Positions 1,302 through 59,322 of a stretch of 64,000 nt of DNA are shown here, piece after piece. Location of the stretch: assembly GCF_058153355.1 (NCBI RefSeq), contig NZ_CM177019.1. One strand, written 5' to 3'. The notes below the pieces were generated by a model, which saw only the letters and a program-made list of their open reading frames with translations, ran no database searches and was not told the origin of the DNA. Numbering within the stretch: position 1 is the stretch's first letter; every line of letters starts with the position of its first letter. The translations under genes were made by a program, and so were the position numbers.

Positions 1302-2354
1302 TTATTCTGTTGGATCAGGAATGCCCAGTGTTGTATTCAGACGTCCACGAGACTTATTAAAGATCTTATTGCCATTTTCACGTCCTGCCCGACGGCGTCG
1401 CTGTTCTTCTGGCGGTAACGCGCTTTCTTCGCAGCAAATCTCACTGCAACAACCTTTGTATTTTTCTGCACATACTGGACACTGAATAAACAGCAGGTGG
1501 CAGCCATCATTTTTACAGTTGGTATGGCTGTCGCACGGCGCACCGCACTGGTGGCAATGCGCGATAATCTCATCAGAGATACGTTCGCCCATCCGCTCGT
1601 CAAACACAAAATTTTTGCCAATAAAACGCACCGGTAAGCCCTGCTCGCGCGCCTTACGGGCGTATTCAATAATTCCGCCTTCGATATGCCAGACTTTATT
1701 GAATCCGTTATGTTTCATCCAGGCACTGGCCTTTTCACAACGAATGCCGCCGGTGCAGTACATAACGATTTTTTTATCTTTATGTTCCTGCATCATCTCG
1801 ACTGCTTTTGGTAGCTGCTCACGGAAGGTATCTGCCGGAATTTCCAGCGCGTTTTCAAAGTGCCCCACTTCATACTCATAATGATTACGCATGTCGATAA
1901 ACAGTGCATCGGGATCGTCAAGCATGGCGTTCACTTCTGCCGCTTGCAGATACTCACCAACATTACTGGCATCGAAGTGAGGATCGTCAATACCGTCGGC
2001 TACGATGCGATCGCGCACCTTCATGCGCAGTACCCAGAAGGATTTCCCGTCATCATCCAACGCGATATTCAGGCGTAAGCCATCTAAAGCCGGGTCGAAG
2101 CCGTATAGCTGTGCGCGAAATGTTTCAACATTGCTCGCAGGTACACTGATTTGCGCGTTAATCCCCTCATGCGCCAGATACACTCGCCCAAAAATATTCA
2201 GCGCAGTAAACAGCTGATATAAAGCGTCACGGGTCGCTTTCGGATCGGCGATGTGGAAATACTTATAAAACGAAATGGTGGTGCGCGGTTCGCGCTCAGC
2301 CAACATTTTGGCTTTCAGCGCGTCGTTGGAAATGCGGTTGTGTAACACTGGCAT
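1302..2354 (-). CDS. trhO: rhodanese-domain tRNA uridine(34) hydroxylase TrhO/YceA (350 aa from internal ATG)
   Basis: ORF 1302..2408; start MPVLHNRIS gives 350 aa; rhodanese active-site motif CTGGIRCEK; C-terminal Cys-rich tail. Confidence 0.85.
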
Positions 2355-2578
2355 GGTGTACGGTTCCTGCGAGATGGGAAAGTAAAAATCCGCGGCATGA
2401 TATAGCAATTATCGATAATTAACATCCACGCATTTTACGCTACATTTGTGCATTAAAAATTATTTATTATTTACAAGCGCGGTAATTTCGCCCAGTCTTC
2501 AGCCACAAATTTTGGTTGCGGGCGAAAAAATGCGACAATACATACAATTGCCCGAATAGGTTGAAAAACAGGATTGAT

Positions 2579-3499
2579 ATGACGAATCTACCCAAGTTCT
2601 CCACCGCACTGCTTCATCCGCGTTATTGGTTAACCTGGTTGGGTATTGGCGTACTTTGGTTGGTCGTGCAATTGCCCTACCCGGTTATCTACCGCCTCGG
2701 TTGTGGATTAGGAAAACTGGCGTTACGTTTTATGAAACGACGCGCAAAAATTGTGCATCGCAACCTGGAACTGTGCTTCCCGAAAATGAGCGAACAAGAA
2801 CGCCGTAAAATGGTGGTGAAGAATTTCGAATCCGTTGGCATGGGACTGATGGAAACTGGCATGGCGTGGTTCTGGCCGGACCGCCGAATCGCCCGCTGGA
2901 CGGAAGTGATCGGCATGGAACACATTCGTGACGTGCAGGCGCAAAAACGCGGCATCCTGTTAGTTGGCATCCATTTTCTGACCCTGGAGCTGGGTGCGCG
3001 GCAGTTTGGTATGCAGGAGCCGGGCATTGGCGTTTACCGCCCGAACGATAATCCACTGATTGACTGGCTACAAACCTGGGGCCGTTTGCGCTCAAATAAA
3101 TCGATGCTCGACCGCAAAGATTTAAAAGGCATGATTAAAGCCCTGAAAAAAGGCGAAGTGGTCTGGTACGCACCGGATCATGATTACGGCCCGCGCTCAA
3201 GCGTTTTCGTCCCGTTGTTTGCCGTTGAGCAGGCTGCGACCACAACCGGAACCTGGATGCTGGCACGGATGTCCGGCGCATGTCTGGTGCCCTTCGTTCC
3301 ACGCCGTAAGCCAGATGGCAAAGGGTATCAGTTGATTATGCTACCGCCAGAGTGTTCTCCGCCGCTGGATGATGCCGAAACCACCGCCGCGTGGATGAAC
3401 AAAGTGGTCGAAAAATGCATCATGATGGCACCAGAGCAGTATATGTGGTTACACCGTCGCTTTAAAACACGTCCGGAAGGCGTTCCTTCACGCTATTAA
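2579..3499 (+). CDS. lpxL: lipid A biosynthesis lauroyl acyltransferase LpxL/HtrB (306 aa)
   Basis: ORF 2516..3499; internal start [17 protein letters not shown] gives 306 aa; acyltransferase family sequence. Confidence 0.85.
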
Positions 3500-11656: not shown

Positions 11657-12814
11657 ATGAATCCAGTACCCGCGCAACGTGAATATTTCCTCGACTCCAT
11701 CCGCGCCTGGCTGATGTTGTTAGGGATCCCTTTTCATATTTCTTTAATCTATTCGAGCCATACATGGCATGTGAATAGCGCCGAACCGTCATTGTGGCTG
11801 ACCCTTTTTAATGACTTCATCCACTCGTTCCGCATGCAGGTATTTTTCGTTATATCCGGGTACTTTTCTTACATGCTTTTTTTACGCTATCCCTTGAAAA
11901 AATGGTGGAAAGTACGTGTCGAACGTGTAGGGATCCCGATGTTAACAGCCATCCCCCTACTGACATTGCCGCAATTTATTATGCTGCAATACGTCAAAGG
12001 GAAAGCGGAAAGTTGGCCTGGGCTGTCATTGTATGACAAATATAATACGTTGGCCTGGGAATTAATATCACACCTGTGGTTTTTACTGGTGTTAGTGGTC
12101 ATGACGACGCTGTGCGTATGGATATTTAAACGCATCAGAAATAATTTAGAAAATTCTGATAAAACGAATAAAAAATTCTCGATGGTAAAATTATCGGTGA
12201 TTTTTTTGTGCCTCGGCATCGGTTATGCGGTAATAAGAAGAACGATTTTTATTGTGTATCCACCCATTCTGAGTAACGGCATGTTCAATTTTATTGTCAT
12301 GCAAACGTTATTTTATTTGCCGTTCTTTATCCTCGGCGCACTGGCTTTCATTTTCCCTCATCTTAAAGCCTTGTTTACCACGCCGTCTCGTGGCTGTACC
12401 CTCGCAGCAGCATTGGCATTTGTCGCTTACTTACTCAACCAGCGCTATGGCAGTGGCGATGCCTGGATGTACGAAACCGAGTCGGTGATCACCATGGTCC
12501 TCGGTCTGTGGATGGTGAATGTGGTCTTCTCCTTCGGCCACCGTTTGCTTAACTTCCAGTCAGCGCGGGTGACTTACTTTGTTAACGCATCGCTATTTAT
12601 CTATCTGGTTCACCACCCGTTAACGCTGTTTTTCGGCGCGTACATTACACCGCACATCACCTCCAACTGGCTTGGTTTTCTCTGTGGCCTGATATTCGTA
12701 GTAGGGATTGCGATAATTCTGTATGAAATTCATTTACGCATCCCGTTACTGAAGTTTTTGTTCTCTGGTAAACCGGTTGTTAAGCGTGAGAACGATAAAG
12801 CACCAGCCCGTTAA
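11657..12814 (+). CDS. opgC: glucan succinyltransferase OpgC/MdoC (385 aa, membrane acyltransferase)
   Basis: ORF 11657..12814; polytopic acyltransferase-3-like; divergent from opgGH as in K-12. Confidence 0.85.
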
Positions 12815-12821
12815 GCCGCGT

Positions 12822-14252
12822 TTACAATAACCATTCCACAGGCAATATCGACGCCAGTCTGACCATAACCCGCTTCCAGAAACTGGTAGCGGGTTCTTTT
12901 TTGAGAACAATTTCTTTCTTAGCATGACGATCAACCCAGTTGATCCGCCCCCACCTGTCCAGACGGAGCTGCCAGGCCGCATCATACTGGCTCTGAATAA
13001 AGCGTTTATCAATTAACTGTGCCAGCGTTTCGCTCTCTATCACGAACCCCATTTCAGTATTGAGCAATGTCGAACGTGGATCGAAATTGAAAGAGCCAAT
13101 AAACACCGTTTTACCATCGATGCTAAAGGTTTTAGCATGCAGGCTGGCACCGGAATTACCGGTTATGCCGCGATCGTGTAACGTACTACTTTGTTCACGC
13201 GTCGGCTTGAGTTCATATAATTCCACGCCGTAGCGGAGCAATTTTTTGCGCCAGCGCGCGTATCCGGCATGGACGACAGCAACATCGTTAGCGGCAAGAG
13301 AATTGGTTAGGATCGCAATCTTTACCCCTTTTCTCACCATCCGTAAGAGTTGCGCCACACCTGCGCGTGTCGGTACAAAATAGGAAGAGATAATATCGAT
13401 GCGTTCACTGGGTGAGCCCATGATATCGAACAGGCGCTGCGGTAACAGTGAATGCCGTTTTGCCTTGCCTTCCCCTTTCGCCGGATCATCACTTAATAAA
13501 CGTGTTTTCGCCCAGATAAGCGGCAACGTTCCCTCAACCAGATGATTTATAAACGGGCTGGATTCCATTTTGCGTAAATAACGATGCGTCATGGCATCGT
13601 CATGCCAGGAGGCGGGTAACTCGATGCGATCCGCCATTTCACCTTCCGGGACATCCAGCACCTGCTGTAAGGGTGAAACCGATTTACAATACCAGTAGCG
13701 GGCGAAATCATCGGCAACGTCCTCTACAACTGGTCCTATTGCCATGACATCTAAATCCGAAAAAAGTGGCTCTTCCCCTGCACCAAAATAGGCATCACCA
13801 ATATTTCGCCCTCCTACCAGCGTCACCACGCCATCGACAGTGAAACTTTTATTGTGCATACGGCGATTGAGACGGGAAAAGTCGGTGATATAACCAAGCG
13901 GACGTAGCAAGCGAAACGAGAAAGGATTAAAAAGCCGGACTTCAATGCGGGGATGACTGTCAAGCAAGCGTAAAATGTCGTCAAGTCCGGGTGTATTGTT
14001 GTCGTCCAGCAACAAACGGACGCGAACGCCACGCTTTGCTGCGGCTAACAGGGCGGAAAACAGTAACCGACCCGACATATCGTCCTGCCAGATGTAATAC
14101 TGAACATCCAGCGTATGCTCTGCCATTTCGGCCAGACGATACCGGGCGGCAAACGCATCCAGACTTTTCTCCAGAGGGAAAAGGCCACACTGACCGGGAT
14201 GTTGCGAACACAGTGGCAGCACCGCGCTCGCCAGCCGGGGCAAATCATTCAT
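12822..14252 (-). CDS. clsC: cardiolipin synthase C ClsC/YmdC, phospholipase D family (start uncertain: ATG 14252 or TTG 14243)
   Basis: ORF 12822..14312; two HxK(x)4D-type PLD motifs (MHNKSF..., [10 protein letters not shown]...); synteny with ymdB. Confidence 0.8.
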
Positions 14253-14778
14253 CTCCTTGTTGGGTAAGGAGTCTTTCGTAGAGGTGGGCGTTTTCTTCAT
14301 CATAACAGACAAAGTATACCTGTTCGGGTAAAGCGTGACGGGTAATAAATTCTGAAACGGTTTTTACTGCGATTTCAGCCGCTGCCGCACGAGGGTAACC
14401 ATAAACCCCAGTACTAATTGCAGGAAAAGCCACTGACGTATAGCTGTTTGCCGCCACCAGTCGTAGGCTATTGAGATAGGCATCCTGCAAAAGCTGGTCT
14501 TCGTTTTGTTCACCACCACGCCAGACTGGCCCGACGGTGTGCACTACGGCTTTCGCGGGAAGATCGCCTGCAAGCGTAATAACGGCATGCCCCGTAGGGC
14601 AATCGCCCTGCTGCTGCCTGACTTTTAAACAGGCATCCAGCAGGGCCGGACCCGCTGCGCGATGAATGGCCCCATCGACGCCGCCGCCTCCCATTAATGA
14701 CGGATTAGCAGCATTCACAATCACATCAACGGCCAGTTTGGTAATATCACCCTGCACAACATGAATACGCGTTTTCAT
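14245..14778 (-). CDS. ymdB: macro-domain O-acetyl-ADP-ribose deacetylase YmdB (177 aa)
   Basis: ORF 14245..14778; macro domain motifs ([23 protein letters not shown]). Confidence 0.85.
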
Positions 14779-16647: not shown

Positions 16648-17401
16648 GTTGTCACCCTGGACCTGGTCGTACATTTAAGAAATTAAATCATTTCAACTTG
16701 GTTGTTAACGCAACCTGTATTTTGTTAACGCCGCGTTACGATGGAAAGTATGTCTGCGGAAATATTTTTAATAACTCACCCGCGCGTTGTATTTTTCTTT
16801 TTTTGTTCATACCAAAGTATTAAAACCCACGTAAATACGCTGTTATCTACGCAAAAAAAATATTTTGTTTTCTTTCAAATTTCGGTTTTCCGCAATCAAA
16901 AATCACCAGACAGTCATTCTTCTTGCCCGTCGCTGATTGCTGCGATATGTATTGCGCACAAGCCGTGACAAACCTCGTCTTTTTGCAGTAAAAAATTGTC
17001 CACGGAGGTGTGGAGAAAAAACAAGAACGTTTTACATGACGAAAGGACTACACCGAAATATTTTTATATGCATTATTAGCAAGTTAGCACCATTTGTATG
17101 ATTTTTTAAAATTGTGCAAGAAAAACCAAATGTACAACTTTTCTATCATTTCTAAACTTAATAAAACCTTCAGATTAACATTTTAATATAACGAGTTACA
17201 TTTAGTTACATGTTTAACACTTGATTTAAGATTTGTAATGGCTAGATTGAAATCAGATGTAATCCATTAGTTTTATATTTTACCCATTTAGGGCTGATTT
17301 ATTACTACACACAGCAGTGCAACATCTGTCAGTACTTCTGGTGCTTCTATTTTAGAGGCAGCTGTCAGGTGTGCGATCAATAAAAAAAGCGGGGTTTCAT
17401 C
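16648..17401. promoter_or_regulatory. csgBAC / csgDEFG divergent intergenic control region (about 750 bp, AT-rich)
   Basis: long AT-rich spacer between divergent csgB and csgD; position corresponds to the well-studied curli regulatory region; individual binding sites not mapped here. Confidence 0.75.
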
Positions 17402-22946: not shown

Positions 22947-23034
22947 GGTGAGGTGTCCGAGTGGCTGAAGGAGCACGCCTGGAAAGTGTGTATACGGCAA
23001 CGTATCGGGGGTTCGAATCCCCCCCTCACCGCCA
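22947..23034 (+). tRNA. serX: tRNA-Ser (anticodon GGA), 88 nt with long variable arm
   Basis: ggtgaggtgtccgagtggctgaaggagcacgcctGGAaa...gggggttcgaatcccccctcaccgcca; cloverleaf by eye, CCA-encoded 3' end. Confidence 0.9.
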
Positions 23035-24760: not shown

Positions 24761-25684
24761 TTAACTGTATGCATGTAGCGTACGTTGGCAAAGTGCTGAA
24801 CGTACGCAATCCTCTTTACCGAATCGGACGATCCCGACCATTTCATCTTCTTCGAAACGTTCCAGCGCGTCACTTAATCCGGAGCGCACGCCGCGAGGTA
24901 AATCGCATTGCGTGATATCACCGTTGACAATAACCGTCACGTTCTCCCCGAGGCGGGTTAAAAACATTTTCATTTGCGCGGCAGTCACATTCTGCGCCTC
25001 GTCAAGAATGACGACTGCATTTTCAAAGGTACGTCCACGCATATAGGCGAACGGCGCAATTTCCACCTTCCCTATTTCCGGTCGCAGGCAGTACTGCATA
25101 AAGGAAGCCCCTAAGCGACGGACCAGCACGTCGTAGACCGGGCGAAAATAGGGAGCAAACTTTTCTGCGATATCACCAGGTAAGAAACCAAGATCTTCAT
25201 CGGCTTGCAGAACTGGACGGGTGACGATAATCCTGTCGACATCCTTATGTATCAGGGCCTCTGCCGCTTTTGCGGCACTGATCCAGGTTTTTCCGCACCC
25301 GGCTTCGCCGGTGGCGAATATCAGCTGCTTACTCTCAATAGCCTTCAGATAGTGCAATTGCGCTTCATTTCGCGCGAGGATGGGCGAGGTATCGCGACTG
25401 TCGCGGGCCATACCAATGGCTTCTACGCCGCTCATCTGCACAAGCGAGGTGACCGATTCTTCTTCACGCTGCTTATGGCTGCGCGAATCCCGTCTCAGCA
25501 CACGTTTTGCCTCGCGACGAGCTTTGATCACTGCTTTTTGTCTTCCCATGGAGAGCACCTTGAGTTGTTTGTATTCATCACACGCGCCGTTGGCAGCGCG
25601 ATTATGCGCACGAACATCAGAGGGTTGGCTTCCTTGTAAGCCATAGTTTGCTTTTGGATAAAATGCCGAAAAACGGCTACGCAC
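24761..25684 (-). CDS. phoH: PhoH, phosphate-starvation-inducible ATPase (307-aa ATG ORF; true N-terminus uncertain, see findings)
   Basis: ORF 24761..25684; Walker A GEAGCGKT and PhoH-family core; synteny next to efeB. Confidence 0.8.
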   Translation of the reverse strand: MRSRFSAFYPKANYGLQGSQPSDVRAHNRAANGACDEYKQLKVLSMGRQKAVIKARREAKRVLRRDSRSHKQREEESVTSLVQMSGVEAIGMARDSRDTSPILARNEAQLHYLKAIESKQLIFATGEAGCGKTWISAAKAAEALIHKDVDRIIVTRPVLQADEDLGFLPGDIAEKFAPYFRPVYDVLVRRLGASFMQYCLRPEIGKVEIAPFAYMRGRTFENAVVILDEAQNVTAAQMKMFLTRLGENVTVIVNGDITQCDLPRGVRSGLSDALERFEEDEMVGIVRFGKEDCVRSALCQRTLHAYS

Positions 25685-26014: not shown

Positions 26015-26180
26015 CAGCAGGATTCGCATCAGGCATCAACGCACGAACGCCGGATGCGGCGTGAACGCCTTATCCTGCCTACCGAACCCGCACCGATTGT
26101 AGGCATGATAAGACGCGCAAACGTCGCATCAGGCATCAGCGCACGAACGCCGGATGCGGCGTAAATGCCTTATCCGCCTC
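26015..26180. repeat. REP/BIME cluster (three or more REP units) between phoH and efeB
   Basis: repeated gccggatgcggcgtgaacgccttatcc and inverted copies. Confidence 0.7.
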
Positions 26181-42054: not shown

Positions 42055-42165
42055 TTCATGCCGGATGCGGCGTGAACGCCTTATCCGGCCTATAAAACAG
42101 TGCAAATTCAATATATTGCAATCTTCTGGTAGGCCTGATAAGCATCGCGCATCAGGCAAGCTTAC
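42055..42165. repeat. REP/BIME element between rutG and ymdF
   Basis: gccggatgcggcgtgaacgccttatccggcctac plus inverted gtaggcctgataagc... Confidence 0.7.
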
Positions 42166-48709: not shown

Positions 48710-51252
48710 GATTTCACCTGCGACGCGGGAACATATTCGCACTGCGCCACCATCTCAACGGGGCCGTTAAACGCCGTCACTTGTTCCACTGTTCCGTTGT
48801 ACTTCTCAATTTCCACCAGCGTGGTATGTGCACTGGTCGCCTGCGCCAGCTGCGAAGTACCGATGTCGATGGTCAACACGTTGGGGTTACCGTATTTACA
48901 CAGTGCACCAGGCTCGCCGCCTTTATCTGGATCGTACCATGCCCCTTCGTGAATTCGTGCCACGCCGGGTGCATAGCAGTCAGAAACCACTGCTCCAGCC
49001 AACACCTGACCACGAGCGTTAAAGACGCGCACCACATCACCGTTACGAATACCGCGCGCACTGGCATCCTGCGGGCTAATAAATACTGGCTCTTTACCCG
49101 CAACCGTATATTGCTGACGCAAAGTTTCCGACTCACATAACTGCGAGTGAAGTCGGAAATCCGGATGCACAGATTGCAGATGCAACGGATACTTCTGCGA
49201 GCCGGGCCCACCGTGGGAGCGTTCGATTTTCTCAAACCACATCGGATGCCCCTGACAATCGTCGTAGTTCATATCAGCGATGGTTTTCGAGTAGATCTCA
49301 ATCAGGCCACTCGGCGTGCCCAGCGGTTCGAGATCCGGATCTTCGCGGAATGCCTGGTGGCGAACAAACATCTGCGGATGGTCAAACTCGACGTACTCTT
49401 TCTTATTCCAGAAGTCATCAAACGCTGGCAGATGAACACCGCGTCCTTTGCCCTGTTGTACACCTTCCTGCCAGATGCGTTTCAGCCAGCCCATTTCGTC
49501 CAGCCCTTCGGTAAAGGCTTCTTCACGATTAAAGCGACGGCACAGCTCGCGGAAAATATCAAAGTCGTTGCGCGCCTCAAACTGCGGCGGCACCACCTGT
49601 TTCATGGCGATGATCCCACGGTTGGAGTGGTTACCGTACTGGTCGAGATCGTTACGCTCAAACTGCGTGGTCGCAGGCAGTACGATATCGGCAAAGCGGC
49701 AGGTTGAGGTCCACTGATTATCTATGGCGATAACCGTTTCCAGCTTGCGCCAGCCTTCGATAATGCGGTTGATCTGCTGATGGCGATGGAACGGGTTAGT
49801 TCCGGCAAAAATACACATTTTCAGCGGCGGCAGTTTTACCGATTTACCATTCCAGTTGATCACTTTTCCCGGTTCGAGGATCGCATCGACAAAACGGGCA
49901 ATCGGAATAGTGCTGCTATAGCCTTGGTAGTCGCTGTTGTCGTGAACAGGTGGAATCGACGTAGAGCCGGAGAAACCACTCAAAATAACGCCTTTACGCC
50001 CCGGCGTGCCTGCGCCGTTATAGTGCCAGCCAAAACCAAAGCCACCACCTGGCAGGCCAATTTGCCCCAGCATCGCCGCCAGTACCACAATCATCCACGC
50101 CCACTGTTCACCGTGCTGCATACGCTGTACGCACCAACCAGCAATAATCTGCGTTCTGTTCGCCGCCATCTGCCGCGCCAGTCCACGAATGGTTTCGGCA
50201 TCAATGCCGGTCAGTTTTTCAGCCCATGCGGCATCTTTCGGCTGACCGTCTTTCTCGCCCAGCAGATAGGGCAGGAACTGCTCAAAACCCACACAGTAGT
50301 TAGCGAGGAAGTTTTTGTCGTACAGGTTTTCGCTGTACAACGTATGCGCCAGCGCCAGTTGCAGCGGCACGTCAGTTTGCGGGTTAACCGCAATGTGCTT
50401 CACATGCTCGCGTCCCAGATACTCATGAGTGGATGTAACAACCGGATCGATGCTGATGACCTGAATTTCACCGGCGGCGACTTTCGCTTTCAACTGCGCG
50501 TAATATTCATAAACATCGTGATCCGGGCACCACCAGTTCGCTTGCTGGTTTTTCAGCAAATCGGAGCCCCACAGCACAATGGTTTTGCTGTTCTGCAATA
50601 CCAGCGGCCAGGAGGTTTGCTGTTCATACACTTCCATTGAGCCAACTACACGCGGCAGGATCACCTGCGCAGCACCGGTGGAGTAATCCCCACCCGTACC
50701 AACGCTATTACCATGTAAGGCAATCGCTTTCGCCAACATCCCCGACGCGTTATGGAACATCCCCGTCGACTGCCAACCACTGGCGGTCAACAAGGCACTC
50801 GGCCCGTGAGTTTTCTGTACGCGTTCCAGTTCTTCATAGAACATGTCGAGGGCTTCATCCCAGCTCACGCGCACAAAACGGTTATCACCTCGCTGGGAGG
50901 TGTCGCTCAGATGGCGCTTACGTAGCCAGTCCACGCGTACCATCGGATAACGAATACGCGCCGCGTTGTGTACGTGGTCCGGCAATCCGGCGATCATTTT
51001 CGACGGATATTTATCCAGTTCGAACGGTTTTGCCGCCACAAAGCGACCATCCTTCACCGTCGCGCGGATAGCCCCCCAGTGCGACCCGGTAAGAATGCCC
51101 TCTTTCGAGGTGACAGCCTCAGTCGCCGCTTGCGCCGCAGTCGCACGGCGCGGCGTTAACAATGACGACCCCAGCATCCCGGCGACAGTTAAGCCGCCGA
51201 GTTGTGCCAGAAAACGTCGACGTGATGCCTGAAAGAGATCGTTATTGTTCAT
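48706..51252 (-). CDS. torA: trimethylamine-N-oxide reductase TorA (molybdoenzyme, Tat signal, 848 aa)
   Basis: ORF 48706..51252; twin-arginine signal [12 protein letters not shown]. Confidence 0.95.
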
Positions 51253-52424
51253 TATTTTTCTTCCTTCTTATCGCCGTGAGCCTTACCTGCGGTATCAGAC
51301 GCATTCATTTGCAGATATTTCAGCAAGGTGCGTTCTTCACGTTTATCGAGGCTGGTAAAGCCAATCATGCCGTTGAGCGTGCCAATCCAACCATTAGCGT
51401 CGAAGTGGGCGATTTCCGGTGCGCCGTGGCATTGATTACAAGTGCCGTTGTACAGCGAATCCGCATAAGCCCAGATCGGTTTGATATCGTTCACCATGTC
51501 GCCTTTCTTCATCCACGCGGTGGCCTGCAATTTGCTCCACTCGGTATTGGTATCGGCAACGGTGGTTTTCTCCAGCGTTTTCACCTGCTGCTGAACATCG
51601 CCACGAATCGAGGCAACAAAGATGCGTTTGCCAGGGAACTGGGTGAGTACACGCTGACGTCCTGCGCTTTCCGTCCAGCCAGTGATTTCAATTTGCAGCC
51701 AGTCGCCGTCACGTTTAAGGACTTTCACTTCCGAAGCAGGCAGCAGAGAACCAGACGCTTCTTTATCGCCTTTCGCCGCATAAATTGGCTTAATATCAAT
51801 GGAGTACAGCGTATCACCACTATCATTTGCACTGGCGCGCAGCTCATCGAATTGCTTACGGAAGCCACTACTCATATCAGGTAACTGGTGGGCAATACCT
51901 TTATGACAGTCGATGCAGGATTGATTATCTTTCGCTGCCACCTTCATCTGACGTGCCGCTTCAGGATGTTGCTTCGCATGATCCATCGCGTCGTAGTTAT
52001 GGCAGGAGCGGCAGGTTGCCGAGTTGTTTTCTTTCATTCGCGCCCATTCACGCTCGGCAAGTTCCGCGCGTTTGGCTTCGAATTTCTCAGGTGTATCAAT
52101 GGAGTGGGCAATAAAGGTCTGGTAGATGTCGTTGCTCGCTTCCAGTTTACGCTTCACCATGCCTGGAATATCCGGCGGGATATGGCAGTCATGGCATTCA
52201 GCTCGCACGCCGGAGGCGTTCTGGAAATGCACCGACTGTTTATATTCTTCATACACCGGTTGCATACTGTGGCAACTGACACAAAATTCGGTTGTGCTGG
52301 TGACTTTGATCCCCACGTGAGGTAACACAATCAGCGCAATGCCAATCACAATCCCAATAGCGACCAGCGCCAGTACCGACCAACGAGCACTGGGTCGGCG
52401 TAACGCGTTCCAGAGTTTCCGCAT
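51252..52424 (-). CDS. torC: pentahaem c-type cytochrome TorC (390 aa from Met MRKLWNAL)
   Basis: ORF 51252..52472; multiple CxxCH haem motifs. Confidence 0.9.
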   Translation of the reverse strand: MRKLWNALRRPSARWSVLALVAIGIVIGIALIVLPHVGIKVTSTTEFCVSCHSMQPVYEEYKQSVHFQNASGVRAECHDCHIPPDIPGMVKRKLEASNDIYQTFIAHSIDTPEKFEAKRAELAEREWARMKENNSATCRSCHNYDAMDHAKQHPEAARQMKVAAKDNQSCIDCHKGIAHQLPDMSSGFRKQFDELRASANDSGDTLYSIDIKPIYAAKGDKEASGSLLPASEVKVLKRDGDWLQIEITGWTESAGRQRVLTQFPGKRIFVASIRGDVQQQVKTLEKTTVADTNTEWSKLQATAWMKKGDMVNDIKPIWAYADSLYNGTCNQCHGAPEIAHFDANGWIGTLNGMIGFTSLDKREERTLLKYLQMNASDTAGKAHGDKKEEK

Positions 52425-52459
52425 AATAGCCCCTGTAAAATTATGGTTTAGTGAAGCGA

Positions 52460-52530
52460 TCTTAATGAGCAAATATGAACAGCGGCACTGGTCAGGATGA
52501 ACGGCTTACGGCAGAATATGAACAGAATGA
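52460..52530. promoter_or_regulatory. torR-torCAD intergenic region with repeated decamers (candidate TorR boxes)
   Basis: atatgaacag at 52473 and 52516, ggatgaacgg at 52495 (reverse complement of CTGTTCATAT-type box). Confidence 0.7.
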
Positions 52531-52543
52531 GTAAAACTCTCTG

Positions 52544-53236
52544 ATGCCACATCACATTGTTATTGTTGAAGATGAGCCGGTTACCCAGGCGCGATTACAA
52601 ACCTACTTCACTCAGGAGGGGTATACGGTTTCCGTTACGGCGAGCGGTGCCGGGCTGCGTGAAATTATGCAAAACCAGCCAGTGGATTTAATTCTGCTGG
52701 ATATCAATTTGCCCGATGAAAATGGCCTGATGTTAACCCGCGCCCTGCGGGAACGTTCGACGGTGGGTATTATTCTGGTTACCGGACGCAGCGATCGGAT
52801 TGACCGTATTGTTGGGCTGGAAATGGGCGCAGACGATTACGTCACCAAACCGCTGGAACTGCGCGAACTGGTGGTACGGGTGAAAAATCTGCTCTGGCGA
52901 ATCGACCTCGCGCGACAAGCTCAACCGCTCACTCAGGACAACTGCTATCGCTTTGCCGGTTATTGCCTGAATGTGTCGCGCCATACGCTGGAGCTTGATG
53001 GCGAACCGATTAAACTAACCCGCGCAGAGTATGAAATGTTGGTGGCATTTGTGACCAATCCGGGCGAAATTCTCAGCCGTGAACGTCTGCTGCGTATGCT
53101 TTCTGCGCGCCGGGTGGAAAATCCCGACCTGCGCACCGTCGATGTGTTAATTCGTCGTTTACGTCATAAACTCAGCGCGGATTTACTGGTGACACAACAT
53201 GGCGAAGGTTATTTCTTAGCCGCTGATGTGTGCTGA
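52544..53236 (+). CDS. torR: response regulator TorR (OmpR family, 230 aa)
   Basis: ORF 52544..53236; receiver domain plus winged-helix. Confidence 0.9.
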   Translation: MPHHIVIVEDEPVTQARLQTYFTQEGYTVSVTASGAGLREIMQNQPVDLILLDINLPDENGLMLTRALRERSTVGIILVTGRSDRIDRIVGLEMGADDYVTKPLELRELVVRVKNLLWRIDLARQAQPLTQDNCYRFAGYCLNVSRHTLELDGEPIKLTRAEYEMLVAFVTNPGEILSRERLLRMLSARRVENPDLRTVDVLIRRLRHKLSADLLVTQHGEGYFLAADVC

Positions 53237-54237
53237 TAAAAATAGACCGGACGAAATCCCCCTGGTGACAGCGAGCGGCGGATATGTTCGCGATCGGCAT
53301 TTTTCGGCGTCAGGACTAAAATCGGTGGGCTGACATTATCAGACACCGATTGTCCCTGTAATTGCCTGATCGCTTGCTCAACCGCCAGTTCCCCCTGCCA
53401 GACCATTTGATCGCTGGCAGCCATGATCACTCTTCCCCGCTTTAGTCCGCGATACACCTGATGTGAAAGATAAAATGACACCACGGTCAGCGGCGTTTTC
53501 AGGTTGCGCCCTTCACCCATTGCCGCCTCTGCCGCAATCGCCGTTCCGGCCACAACGTCGATTTCTGGATGGCGCTCCAACATCTCCTGCAACAGGTTAC
53601 GCTGGATTTCAATATCGTTGTCGCCGAGCGCAATATCGACAATACGCACCGGGCTTCCGGCAATGGCGGCGCGGAAACCCTCTACCATCTCCTTACTGCC
53701 CCCGGCGTTATCGGGGCCGGGCATCAACAGCACGTTCAGTGGTTTTCCGTGACTCCATTGCACCAGATATCGCCCTGGTTGATAGCCCATCTGAAACCAC
53801 GGCACACCAACGCGGCTTTTCACCTGGGGAGCATCAATAGCATTTACCAGTTCGATCACCGGCAGACTTGCTACCTGCTTTTGCAGGTCGGGAAATGACG
53901 TCGTGCTACTACCGAGCAAAATGGCCTCTGCACCCCACTGTTTGCACTGGTCGATTTGTGCTTGCTGGGTAGCCAACTGGCTGTAGCCGCCTGCCTCCAG
54001 CACTTTTAAATCCACACCGTAGCGGCGAGCAGCCTCCTGCATACCATAGTTCAACGATAACCAGTATGAATCTTTCAGGCTGGGATAAAGCGCGCACAGT
54101 TTCCATGCGCGTTTGGCTTTAAGCGGCATAGAGGCTTGCACCGTGAAATGCTGCGCATCATGCCAGCGCAACAAGTTATCAGCCGAAAAACCAGGCCACA
54201 TGAAAAGGGAAAGAAGTAACAATAGCAGTACGCGCAT
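53209..54237 (-). CDS. torT: periplasmic TMAO-binding protein TorT (342 aa)
   Basis: ORF 53209..54237; signal peptide; 3' end overlaps torR 3' end by 28 bp. Confidence 0.85.
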
Positions 54238-54319
54238 GATAGCCTCATCAATGATAAGGCTTTATGCTAGATGCATTCCGCTTTGCGACTCAACCTTTTT
54301 CACCTTAAGTACACTGACC

Positions 54320-57064
54320 GTGAATTTAACCCTGACCCGAAGACTCTGGATGGGCTTTGCCCTGATGGCGCTGTTAACCCTGACCAGTACCCTGGTGGGA
54401 TGGTACAACCTGCGCTTTATCAGCCAGGTGGAAAAAGACAATACTCAGGCATTGATTCCTACCATGAATATGGCGCGCCAGTTGAGCGAAGCCAGCGCCT
54501 GGGAACTTTTCGCCGCCCAGAACCTGACCAGTGCCGATAACGAAAAGATGTGGCAGGCGCAGGGGCGAATGCTCACCGCACAAAGCCTGAAGATTAACGC
54601 GTTGCTGCAAGCGTTACGGGAACAAGGTTTTGATACCACCGCTATTGAACAACAGGAGCAGGAGATCTCCCGTTCGTTACGTCAACAAGGGGAACTGGTG
54701 GGGCAGCGTTTGCAACTGCGCCAGCAACAACAGCAACTCAGCCAGCAGATAGTCGCTGCTGCCGATGAGATCGCACGCCTGGCGCAAGGTCAGGCGAATA
54801 ATGCGGCGACCTCTGCCGGAGCGACCCAGGCCGGGATTTACGATTTGATCGAACAACATCAGCGTCAGGCCGCAGAAAACGCACTTGATCGGCTGATTGA
54901 TATCGATCTTGAGTACGTTAACCAGATGAATGAACTGCGCCTTAGCGCCCTGCGGGTGCAGCAAATGGTGATGAATCTGGGGCTGGAACAGATCCAGAAA
55001 AATGCGCCAACGCTGGAAAAGCAACTCAATAATGCGGTTAAAATTCTGCAACGTCGGCAAATACGCATTGAAGATCCCGGTGTTCGTGCACAGGTCGCGA
55101 CAACGTTAACTACCGTTAGCCAATATAGCGATTTGCTGGCGCTGTATCAGCAGGACAGTGAAATCAGCAATCACCTGCAAACTCTCGCCCAAAATAACAT
55201 CGCCCAGTTCGCACAGTTTAGTAGCGAAGTCAGTCAACTGGTCGACACCATTGAGCTGCGCAATCAGCACGGGCTGGCACATCTGGAAAAAGCCAGTGCA
55301 CGCGGGCAATACAGCCTGTTATTGCTGGGAATAGTTTCTCTTTGCGCATTGATTCTGATCCTCTGGCGCGTGGTTTATCGTTCAGTCACGCGTCCACTTG
55401 CCGAACAAACGCAGGCGCTGCAACGACTGCTGGACGGTGATATCGACTCCCCTTTTCCGGAAACCGCTGGCGTGCGGGAGCTGGACACCATCGGGCGGCT
55501 GATGGATGCGTTTCGCAGCAGTGTTCATGCGCTTAATCGCCACCGCGAACAGCTGGCGGCGCAGGTAAAAGCGCGCACAGCCGAATTGCAGGAATTGGTG
55601 GTCGAACATCGACAGGCACGGGCGGAAGCAGAAAAAGCCAGCCAGGCAAAATCGGCGTTTCTGGCGGCAATGAGCCATGAGATCCGCACACCGCTGTACG
55701 GTATTCTCGGCACCGCGCAACTGCTGGCAGATAACCCCGCACTTAATGCCCAGCGTGATGATTTGCGGGCAATTACTGACTCTGGTGAATCGTTGCTGAC
55801 CATCCTCAACGATATTCTCGATTATTCGGCTATCGAAGCAGGCGGCAAGAATGTTTCGGTCAGCGATGAACCCTTTGAACCGCGCCCGTTGCTGGAAAGT
55901 ACCCTGCAATTAATGAGCGGACGGGTGAAAGGTCGCCCGATTCGCCTGGCAACTGAAATTGCCGACGATGTACCGACTGCGTTAATGGGCGATCCGCGGC
56001 GTATTCGTCAGGTCATTACCAACCTGTTGAGCAACGCCCTGCGTTTCACCGACGAAGGGCACATTATCCTGCGTAGTCGCACTGATGGCGAGCTGTGGCT
56101 GGTCGAAGTGGAAGACAGCGGCTGCGGTATTGATCCCGAGAAACTGGCTGAAATCTTCCAGCCATTTGTTCAGGTTAGCGGCAAACGCGGCGGCACCGGG
56201 CTGGGGCTGACTATCAGTAGCCGTCTGGCCCAGGCGATGAGCGGCGAACTGAGCGCCACCAGCACGCCGGAGGTTGGAAGCTGTTTTTGTTTACGCTTGC
56301 CGTTACGTGTTGCCACTGCACCCGTGCCAAAAACAGTCAATCAGGCGGTGCATCTGGACGGTTTACGTTTGCTGTTAATTGAAGATAACCCGCTAACCCA
56401 GCGAATTACCGTTGAGATGCTGAACAACAGTGGTGCGCAGGTCGTTGCTGTTGGCAATGCCGCGCACGCGATAGAGACGTTGCAAAATAGCGAACCGTTT
56501 GCTGCCGCACTGGTGGATTTTGATCTGCCGGATATCGACGGTATTACCCTTGCCCGACAACTGGTACAGCAATATCCGTCGCTGGTTTTGATTGGCTTTA
56601 GCGCTCATGTCATCGACGAAACGTTGCGCCAGCGTACCAGTTCATTATTTCGCGGGATTATCCCTAAACCGGTGCCGCGTGAAGTGCTCGGTCAGTTACT
56701 GGCGCACTATCTCCAACTGCAAGTCAATAACGATCAACCGTTGGATGTATCGCAACTCAATGAAGATGCGCAGTTGATGGGGACGGAGAAGATCCACGAA
56801 TGGCTGACATTATTTAAACAACATGCCCTGCCGCTTCTCGATGACATCGACATTGCCCGCGCCAGTCAGGAAAGCGAGAAAATAAAGCGTGCCGCACATC
56901 AGCTAAAAAGCAGTTGCTCGAGTCTGGGAATGCGTAGCGCCAGCCAGCTATGCGCACAACTGGAGCAGCAGCCATTATCTGCCCCCCTTCCACACGAAGA
57001 AATTACACGCAGTGTTGCCGCTCTGGAAGCATGGTTGAATAAGAAAGACCTGAACGCGATTTGA
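54320..57064 (+). CDS. torS: hybrid sensor kinase TorS (about 914 aa, probable GTG start)
   Basis: ORF 54113..57064; sequence from [13 protein letters not shown]; HisKA/HATPase, receiver and HPt segments. Confidence 0.85.
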
Positions 57065-57135
57065 ATCAATATCAGCCAGTTAAGAACAACTAGAATAGTG
57101 GCGTTTGGTATGCAACTTAACGGACTGGCAAAATC

Positions 57136-58209
57136 ATGGCAGAGAAAAGAAGAACCCGCTGGCAGCGGCGGCCAGGCACGACGGGCGGCAAATTACCGTG
57201 GAATGACTGGCGCAATGCCACGACCTGGCGTAAAGCGACGCAATTATTACTGTTGGCAATTAATATTTATATTGCCATCACGTTCTGGTATTGGGTGCGC
57301 TATTACGAAACGGCAGGTAGTACGACATTTGTCGCCAGGCCAGGAGGCATCGAAGGCTGGCTACCGATTGCCGGTCTGATGAATCTGAAATATAGCCTTG
57401 CAACAGGCCAGTTACCGTCCGTCCACGCCGCCGCGATGCTGTTATTGGTCGCTTTTATCGTCATCAGTCTATTACTAAAAAAGGCCTTTTGTTCATGGTT
57501 ATGCCCGGTTGGTACGCTTTCTGAATTAATCGGCGATCTCGGTAACAAACTGTTTGGTCGGCAATTTGTCCTTCCCCGCTGTCTGGATATTCCTCTGCGC
57601 GGCGTGAAGTATTTGCTGTTGAGTTTTTTTCTCTATATCGCGTTATTGATGCCCGCTCAGGCTATTCACTATTTTATGTTGTCGCCCTACAGCGTGGTGA
57701 TGGACGTTAAAATGCTCGATTTCTTTCGTCATATGGGGACCGCGACATTAATCAGCGTGACCGTTTTGCTGATTGTCAGTCTGTTTATTCGCCATGCCTG
57801 GTGTCGTTATCTTTGCCCATATGGCGCGCTGATGGGCGTGGTTTCGCTATTGTCGCCGTTTAAGATTCGTCGCAATGCCGAAAGTTGTATCGACTGTGGC
57901 AAATGCGCAAAAAATTGCCCATCGCGGATCCCGGTCGATAAATTAATTCAGGTACGAACCGTGGAATGTACCGGTTGTATGACTTGCGTAGAGTCATGTC
58001 CGGTAGCCTCAACATTGACCTTTTCACTGCAAAAACCTGCGGCAAATAAAAAAGCCTTTGCGTTGTCTGGCTGGTTAATGACGGTACTGGTTCTGGGGAT
58101 TATGTTTGCGGTGATTGGTTACGCAATGTATGCGGGAGTATGGCAAAGCCCGGTGCCGGAGGAATTGTACCGACGCTTAATTCCGCAAGCGCCAATGATT
58201 GGTCACTAA
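57136..58209 (+). CDS. yccM: membrane 4Fe-4S ferredoxin-type protein YccM (357 aa)
   Basis: ORF 57136..58209; CxxCxxC motifs (CIDCGKCAKNCP, CTGCMTCVESCP). Confidence 0.85.
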   Translation: MAEKRRTRWQRRPGTTGGKLPWNDWRNATTWRKATQLLLLAINIYIAITFWYWVRYYETAGSTTFVARPGGIEGWLPIAGLMNLKYSLATGQLPSVHAAAMLLLVAFIVISLLLKKAFCSWLCPVGTLSELIGDLGNKLFGRQFVLPRCLDIPLRGVKYLLLSFFLYIALLMPAQAIHYFMLSPYSVVMDVKMLDFFRHMGTATLISVTVLLIVSLFIRHAWCRYLCPYGALMGVVSLLSPFKIRRNAESCIDCGKCAKNCPSRIPVDKLIQVRTVECTGCMTCVESCPVASTLTFSLQKPAANKKAFALSGWLMTVLVLGIMFAVIGYAMYAGVWQSPVPEELYRRLIPQAPMIGH

Positions 58210-58257
58210 ATTAGCAACAAGCGGAACATCACCTCGCACGGGGTGATGTTCACAAAA

Positions 58258-58431
58258 TCACATTATTTTGATTTTGACATCATAGCTTTCAAGCCCGGTC
58301 ATTTTTTCTCGTGCGGTGAAGCGAATTTCAGAGACTTCTTTCCCTGTATTCTTGTTCAGCTCGGCGATTTTTTGCGCGATAAAGTCAGCGATTTCCGTTT
58401 CGGCTTGTTTTTTTAACTCTTCAATATTCAC
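58258..58431 (-). CDS. gnsA: GnsA-family small protein (57 aa, GTG start), not in ORF track
   Basis: manual translation of the minus strand: (M)NIEELKKQAETEIADFIAQKIAELNKNTGKEVSEIRFTAREKMTGLESYDVKIKIM. Confidence 0.7.
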   Translation of the reverse strand: MNIEELKKQAETEIADFIAQKIAELNKNTGKEVSEIRFTAREKMTGLESYDVKIKIM

Positions 58432-58651
58432 TGTTAACCTCTTCTGGTCTTAAAAGACAGCAACACGCCAGTAAGGTGTTGGTTCCCGGTACCCTGGTCA
58501 GGTAAGAAATGTTATAAGCCATCTCCCCTAAAGATTCAATAATCAACAGGTTATCGCTTACTATACATACAGCGTTGAAGAAAAATAAGGCAGATATAAA
58601 AAAGGCTCCACGAGGGAGCCTGATCTTATTTTGTGAAATCCAGCGGCGCAT
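58421..58651 (-). CDS. ymcE: small membrane protein YmcE (76 aa from Met MRRWISQNK)
   Basis: ORF 58421..58684; position between cspG and gnsA. Confidence 0.5.
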   Translation of the reverse strand: MRRWISQNKIRLPRGAFFISALFFFNAVCIVSDNLLIIESLGEMAYNISYLTRVPGTNTLLACCCLLRPEEVNSEY

Positions 58652-58824
58652 GGTCAGTGCGTATTTGCAGCGCGACGTTATCAAAGGTGATCATCGTCGA
58701 TTTACAAAAAATACACTTTGCCCCTAAAGGATTTCGCTCCGTCACATCGAATGCCGATGTGCGGTACTGTGAACCATGACAACATGGACAGCGGAAATGG
58801 AGATGTTGAGTAATAACGGCAACC

Positions 58825-59037
58825 TTAGAGCGTAACAACGTTCGCTGCCGCGGGACCACGTTGCCCCTGCTCAATAGAAAATTCAACTTTCTGATTTTCG
58901 TTCAGCGTGCGGAATTCATTGCTCTGGATGGCGGTGAAATGGACGAAAACGTCTTTGCTGCCATCATCAGGAGTGATAAAGCCAAAACCTTTATCTGCGT
59001 TAAACCATTTTACTAAACCAGTCATTTTATTAGACAT
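58825..59037 (-). CDS. cspG: cold-shock protein CspG (70 aa)
   Basis: ORF 58825..59037; CSD with [15 protein letters not shown] motif. Confidence 0.9.
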
Positions 59038-59322
59038 ATTTTACTTCCTTCATTTTGGGCCTTTCGGCAAACAGGGCTTTAATACAGAAACTACTTAGTG
59101 TTCAGGAGAGAGACTCAAAAGAAGGGGATAATGCCTGATAATGAGAACTGCTTTAGTAAACTACTTTGTATGCTGTCTGTCTTTCAAACCGACGCAGCTA
59201 TTAACGCATGATAATTGAGATTAAGCAATTTTTATTTTAGCCGTCCGGCGGTCTTAAATATCGCTGGCTTTATTTTATTAACCCCGTATAGTGCAGCGCA
59301 GTATTTTCAGTAAGGAATTTGT

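Follow-up and report, generated by a model that had tools for sequence, protein, structure and literature searches.

A conserved 28-bp coding overlap between the convergent genes torR and torT, probably an old 3' extension of torT held in place by TorR

Within the window, a stretch of 64,000 nucleotides from contig NZ_CM177019.1 (NCBI RefSeq assembly GCF_058153355.1), torR and torT are a genuine convergent overlapping pair: two real genes on opposite strands whose 3' ends have 28 bp in common (Table 1). The explanation we favour, with a probability of roughly three in four, is that this is an old tail-to-tail overlap of TMAO-sensing genes, in which torT was extended into torR and was then frozen there by the conservation of TorR, with little or no regulation arising from it. 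The overlap as such is already known, from the standard annotation and from a published catalogue of excludons (PMC12288877). What is previously unreported is the retention of exactly 28 bp across genera, the origin of the torT stop codon in a conserved Gly-Tyr pair of TorR, and the explanation of the TorT tail as a passenger; these are small additions.

Table 1. Features of the torR-torT locus, in positions of the window
Feature	Position	Strand	Description
torR	52544..53236	+	OmpR-family response regulator TorR, 230 aa; stop TGA
torT	53209..54237	-	periplasmic TMAO-binding protein TorT, 342 aa; stop TAA, read as TTA on the + strand
Tail-to-tail coding overlap	53209..53236	both	28 bp; on +, TorR Y223-C230 and stop; on -, TorT Q335-K342 and stop, plus the third base of the Y334 codon
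torT stop TAA	53209..53211	-	complement of the third base of TorR Gly222 (GGT) and the first two bases of Tyr223 (TAT)
torR stop TGA	53234..53236	+	lies within TorT codons Tyr334-Gln335 (TAT CAG on the - strand)
Second stop TAA	53237..53239	+	directly after the torR TGA
Candidate Rho-utilisation region	53340..53445	+	C-rich, G-poor, C/G up to 2.1; 100-200 nt past the torR stop, in antisense torT
torC-torR divergent intergenic region	52425..52543	both	torR and torCAD promoter, TorR-binding region; torC start from RefSeq
Two perfect tor boxes (CTGTTCATAT)	52473..52482 and 52516..52525	-	the nearer one 18 nt upstream of the torR start codon
torT-torS divergent intergenic region	54238..54319	both	torT promoter side; torS start from RefSeq

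The initial annotation placed the end of torR at 53236 and that of torT at 53209, with a 28-bp overlap on opposite strands, and the ORF list, the raw sequence and RefSeq bear it out. TorR scores 423.8 bits against the NCBIfam equivalog NF008034 (cutoff 275), with residues 1-230 aligned to positions 1-231 of the 231 in the profile, and its receiver domain matches the solved structure of E. coli TorR (PDB 1zgz) with an E value of 9.5e-73. TorT scores 492.1 bits against NF008185 (cutoff 200), residues 1-339 corresponding to profile positions 1-345 of 346, and 437.4 bits against TIGR02955 (cutoff 310); its AlphaFold model, with a mean pLDDT of 92.3, predicts a confident alternation of strands and helices. 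The description of torT reportedly dates to 1996 and to the work of Jourlin and colleagues.

That the overlap is an artefact, with one protein ending earlier than its ORF or one ORF being no gene at all, has virtually negligible weight. The ORF list does over-extend the 5' ends of the neighbouring genes torC and torS. The two stop codons, however, are unambiguous in the raw sequence, both proteins match their equivalog profiles up to the last residues, and orthologues in seven genera share the same end positions. An earlier end to either protein, named beforehand as what would overturn the overlap, is not seen, because TorR and TorT are both full length against the curated profiles NF008034 and NF008185. 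C-terminal proteolytic trimming alone could shorten mature TorT, but this would leave the coding overlap unaffected.

The same geometry is found in the RefSeq/PGAP annotation of a laboratory E. coli strain and of the window's closest relative (torR 1655..2347 on the plus strand, torT 2320..3348 on the minus strand), and the K-12 coordinates tabulated in PMC7373196 (torT 1055484..1056512, torR 1056485..1057177) again give 28 bp. A 151-bp probe spanning the junction detected it in 5415 of 5426 complete E. coli genomes, where the annotation shows both genes. Beyond E. coli, a plain homologue search returned E. coli proteins only, and a diverse TorT alignment was built instead from a search of representative genomes. 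This gave 80 loci from species-representative genomes, in which the stop-to-stop distance was taken wherever a TorR orthologue is convergent to torT. Exactly 28 bp of overlap is seen at 15 of these loci, distributed over seven genera: Escherichia (3 loci), Citrobacter (4), Salmonella (arizonae and diarizonae), Providencia (2), Pragia, Budvicia (2), and Parendozoicomonas. TorT identity to the query falls to 42-54% among the 28-bp loci, the overlap being retained at 42% in Parendozoicomonas (L064:4948-4975). The E. coli counts and the seven genera together establish that the convergent overlap is evolutionarily conserved and is no strain-specific accident.

Other arrangements occur as well. In Serratia sp. 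H1w (L053:3930-3950) the overlap is 21 bp and lies in a different antisense frame, Cognaticolwellia has an overlap of 8 bp, and Edwardsiella hoshinae one of 4 bp. The two genes are separated by a 7-bp gap in Edwardsiella piscicida and E. ictaluri and by gaps of 18-60 bp in Colwellia, Amphritea and Psychromonas; in Vibrio and Photobacterium, torR is not adjacent to torT. The altered frame in Serratia sp. H1w and the gap or 4-bp overlap in Edwardsiella (loci L014-L016) show that some lineages have a labile geometry. Identity between the TorR of Providencia (L009, L011) and that of Escherichia is 85-90%, an unusually high value for that family. This identity and the Parendozoicomonas locus suggest that the torT-torR cassette may have spread laterally.

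How 28 bp can be kept so exactly becomes apparent from the way the two reading frames are set against each other. Their third codon positions coincide (53212, 53215 and so on to 53236), such that each TorT codon is complementary to the first two bases of one TorR codon together with the wobble base of the codon that precedes it. The TorT tail QHTSAAKK is the antisense reading of TorR YFLAADVC, and the torT stop codon is drawn from the pair Gly222-Tyr223 at its start. This pair belongs to a GEGY sequence that is kept in all TorR orthologues examined but one, and in the exception, Budvicia aquatica, the sequence is SEGY and the Gly-Tyr pair is intact. The GxGY strand is presumably part of the C-terminal winged helix that TorR shares with the OmpR family. 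All of the 28-bp loci have TAY after GGT or GGC, so that the opposite strand reads TAA or TAG. Only a Tyr, His or Gln codon in TorR could supply an earlier antisense stop in this frame, and the TorR tail has no further codon of these kinds; the end point of torT is therefore fixed by the TorR sequence.

The distribution of sequence variation across the overlap was measured as mean entropy, in bits, over 16 sequences with the 28-bp overlap, with the preceding 52 codons of each gene for comparison. At codon positions 1-2 the overlap is the more conserved segment in both genes, with 0.31 compared to 0.60 for torR and 0.35 compared to 1.06 for torT. At the wobble positions the overlap has an entropy of 1.35, against 1.40 in the preceding torR codons and 1.52 in the preceding torT codons. 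Thus, among these 16 sequences there is no extra wobble conservation, the shared sites being as free as their flanks, and the overlap nucleotides are under no constraint beyond that of the two coding frames.

The low entropy of the TorT tail, far below that of the rest of its C-terminal region, might be taken to mean that the eight residues, with their basic KK end, are themselves selected and serve TorT folding, export or binding to TorS. The AlphaFold model lends this some support in that it assigns moderate confidence to the tail (mean pLDDT of 84 for the block of residues 331-340, and 42 for residues 341-342); a description of the tail as disordered was set aside, since the confidence in block 331-340 makes it not clearly disordered. 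A related proposal is that the overlap welds the two genes together against recombination or for transfer, and the presence of a cassette with the same overlap in the distant Providencia and Parendozoicomonas suggests transfer as a unit. We nevertheless regard selection for the tail or for linkage as very unlikely. The conservation of the TorT tail is fully explained by its being tied to TorR, whose own tail, AA[DE]Vx, shows the same degree of conservation where the genes do not overlap. The TorT family is conserved in its core up to FRPVY, and the tails beyond this motif differ greatly in length; in non-overlapping taxa TorT ends about five residues past the FRPVY Tyr, and Vibrio, Photobacterium and most members of the family are without such a tail. 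In Serratia sp. H1w the tail is wholly different (PSADVGG, with a stop derived from a TorR CTA Leu codon), and the tails of Edwardsiella are unrelated. To judge by the replacement in Serratia sp. H1w and the re-separation of the genes in Edwardsiella, the tail appears to be dispensable in evolution. In addition, a bulky C-terminal fusion of TorT to mCherry still binds TorS in vivo and co-localises with it (PMC3795677).

Under the favoured explanation, an ancestral torT would have stopped about five codons past FRPVY and would have been followed by a short spacer to torR, as is now the case in Colwellia, Amphritea and Psychromonas. With the loss of this stop and spacer, torT would have been read through the antisense of the last codons of torR and would have halted at the first antisense stop available, the complement of the GGY TAY that encodes the Gly-Tyr of TorR GEGY. 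QHTSAAKK would then be a passenger, set by codon positions 1-2 of TorR YFLAADVC. The sharing of wobble positions is the least constraining of the possible frame arrangements, and the overlap would be held because TorR itself is conserved and any indel would carry a cost for both genes. Given the shared wobble positions and the lack of an earlier antisense stop in the TorR tail, an overlap of exactly 28 bp would follow wherever the tail and the frame of TorR are undisturbed. The direction of change, extension of torT rather than secondary loss of an overlap, is a tentative reading, made without a tree, of a few loci that may have been transferred laterally. It is in keeping with the attribution of convergent overlaps to 3'-end extension following the loss of a stop codon (PMC2716372). 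On the other side, the exact retention of 28 bp down to Parendozoicomonas could reflect selection on the arrangement itself, and the survey in PMC12288877 gives excludon pairs as a class that is more syntenic than other neighbours, which speaks against a frozen accident.

The length of the overlap is unremarkable as a chance outcome. [quoted passage not shown] What is above chance is that exactly 28 bp has been kept across several genera. The whole window contains roughly eight convergent ORF pairs, torR-torT among them; another tight pair lies at 11657..12814 (plus strand) and 12822..14312 (minus strand), the stops being only 7 bp apart.

It had also been stated that the overlap leaves no room for terminators, and this is upheld: there is no intergenic space, and a consensus scan of both strands found no intrinsic terminator site up to 250 bp from the junction. 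A search for inverted repeats and a scan for hairpins followed by a U-tract gave nothing convincing at the junction, nor was there a bidirectional intrinsic terminator there, that is, a G+C-rich hairpin flanked by an A-tract and a U-tract. Two structures were considered and rejected. An imperfect palindrome at 53192-53231 (ACACAACATGGC...GCCGCTGATGTGTG), which sits astride the torT stop, is followed on the plus strand by an A-run and not by a U-run, is not conserved in other genera, and folds no better than shuffled sequences. At 53249-53298 there is a long, irregular hairpin that carries a U5 tail; it is weak as a terminator and likewise folds no better than shuffles (z-scores in the window of -1.5 and -0.3). 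Conserved folding was absent from the orthologous junctions, 15 of 16 loci having z-scores near 0. No Rfam family matches at the junction, and taken together the Rfam search, the wobble entropy and the folding give no conserved cis-acting RNA element in the overlap.

Spacers in related genomes put the missing terminator in perspective. Of three spaced relatives scanned, a Colwellia metagenome-assembled genome has a hairpin with a 9-bp stem and a T-run in its 51-bp torT-torR spacer, and the spacers of Psychromonas and Amphritea have no terminator-like site. With a terminator-like hairpin in only one of three, loss of the spacer was discarded as a general cause of the missing terminator; a terminator can thus be missing from genes that do not overlap as well.

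In the absence of both a spacer and an intrinsic terminator, each mRNA must carry sequence antisense to the other and reach its end within the opposite gene; termination there is probably diffuse or dependent on Rho. Rho loads on C-rich untranslated RNA, and the C-rich stretch in antisense torT (Table 1) could plausibly act as such a loading region when transcription reads through from torR. A composition scan downstream of the torT stop found no comparable stretch.

Transcription of this kind has been recorded in MG1655. Table 1 of a 2025 survey (PMC12288877) includes torT-torR among 165 convergent excludons, with transcript overlap in at least 50% of 58 RNA-seq samples. In Table S1c of PMC7373196, wild-type reads per million (RPM) are 9.07 sense and 3.28 antisense for torT, and 17.8 sense and 1.76 antisense for torR. 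Short dsRNA captured by p19 amounts to 5-12 RPM for torT and 8-29 RPM for torR in the same study. These observations, together with the lack of a terminator at the junction, the retention of the 28-bp geometry across genera, and the effect on Tor output ascribed in PMC6814406 to small changes in TorS or TorT levels, are what would be expected if the pair were a functional excludon, in which mutual repression of torR and torT, by polymerase collision or by RNase III cleavage of the duplex, tunes the ratio of TorT to TorR and, indirectly, that of TorT to TorS, and hence the induction and noise of torCAD.

We consider a functional excludon unlikely, since several lines of evidence run the other way. 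In the values tabulated in PMC7373196 (Table S1c), sense RNA is no higher in the RNase III mutants rnc-14 and rnc-38 than in the wild type (5.25 and 5.95 RPM for torT; 12.75 and 9.18 RPM for torR), and antisense RNA is 1.72 and 1.98 RPM for torT and 1.39 and 1.61 RPM for torR. These values argue only weakly against a coupling of torT and torR through RNase III, because they are single values from aerobic bulk cultures, and the Tor system matters under anaerobic or TMAO conditions. The dsRNA signal is ordinary by the figures in PMC7373196, where 87% of genes reach 1 RPM or more and about 23 RPM within 200 bp is required for a cluster, and in the 2025 survey the p19 data did not validate the convergent class of excludons (PMC12288877). 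The torR and torT promoters are both described as weak, and transcription of torT and torS under aerobic conditions as extremely low (PMC6814406); head-on encounters between polymerases should therefore be rare. Furthermore, TorT and TorR cooperate in one pathway, whereas excludons usually pair antagonists; neither extra wobble conservation nor a conserved RNA structure accompanies the overlap; and the overlap has been lost, or was never present, in Edwardsiella and several other taxa. A stronger form of the idea, in which the 28-bp geometry is conserved as an antisense device that sets TorT:TorR stoichiometry, and through it the kinase/phosphatase balance of TorS, and that adds to the known stochastic bet-hedging in torCAD expression, we hold to be quite unlikely.

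The initial annotation had gone on to say that the overlap implies antisense transcriptional interference or coupled decay. Antisense transcript overlap is indeed on record for MG1655 (PMC12288877, PMC7373196), but the step to "implies" is unsupported: termination is possible inside the opposite gene, perhaps at the C-rich stretch, neither mRNA is raised in the rnc mutants, and the two products share one pathway. Under the frozen-extension reading, the complementary 3' ends of the two mRNAs, present at low expression, would most likely have little or no regulatory effect, which is the least certain step of that reading.

Comparison with known systems places the pair among the prokaryotic convergent overlaps, in that two real genes on opposite strands share their 3' ends. 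Overlaps of 4 bp are the typical class, and the 28 bp of torR-torT is longer. It differs further from this group in that its length is exact across several families of Enterobacterales and beyond, a constancy measured for this pair only. Like the excludons, of which Listeria provides the prototype and ExcludonFinder a catalogue, torT-torR has convergent transcripts that overlap in MG1655. Classic excludons, however, pair opposing functions, overlap by means of long UTRs and have a demonstrated reciprocal effect, whereas TorT and TorR cooperate, their genes overlap in coding sequence, and expression is low; the data available in PMC7373196 show neither a reciprocal effect nor dependence on RNase III. 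Bidirectional intrinsic terminators occupy the same position between convergent genes, but the window is without such a hairpin. With regard to the torS-torT-torR-torCAD cluster of E. coli, the window has the same genes, order, orientations and tor boxes, all of the proteins match curated equivalogs, and no functional difference is seen.

The significance of the overlap is modest, as it is part of the standard E. coli annotation and its consequence at the transcript level has already been catalogued (PMC12288877). It does serve as an example in which the origin of a convergent overlap and its subsequent freezing can be followed, with a tail that is a passenger, a stop taken from a conserved Gly-Tyr pair, and shared wobble positions. 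Were the overlap to tune TorT:TorR, a model of noisy two-component signalling that is already well studied would gain a further layer. In practical terms, neither torT nor torR can be tagged at the 3' end, deleted, or fitted with a reporter there without a change to the other gene. The torT-lacZ reporter strains in the strain table of PMC6814406 have torR deleted, as would be expected if insertion of the reporter after torT disrupts the 3' end of torR.

Several observations concern the surroundings of the pair. Autoregulation by TorR is known, and the tor box near the torR start is consistent with it. The ORF list begins torC at a TTG at 52472, compared to a RefSeq start at 52424, and begins torS at a TTG at 54113, compared to a RefSeq start at 54320; the latter over-extension therefore produces a spurious 125-bp overlap of the torS and torT 5' ends that might be taken as real. 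The torT-torS intergenic region is listed in PMC6814406 as containing an IscR site and the HK022 attachment site. At this locus the window DNA is about 96% identical to typical E. coli and about 92% identical to E. albertii. Positions 49001-58500 are 98.4-99.1% identical to a Canadian clinical isolate (NZ_CM148325), and identity of at least 99% is reached in only 2 of 5419 E. coli records; these values therefore indicate a divergent Escherichia lineage. Elsewhere in the window, Rfam matches above the gathering score are, on the plus strand, ES056 (17255-17346), an 85-nt tRNA (22947-23031), Ysr251 (24766-24959) and ES036 (42094-42136) and, on the minus strand, naRNA4 (26102-26179) and the cspA thermoregulator (58771-59193).
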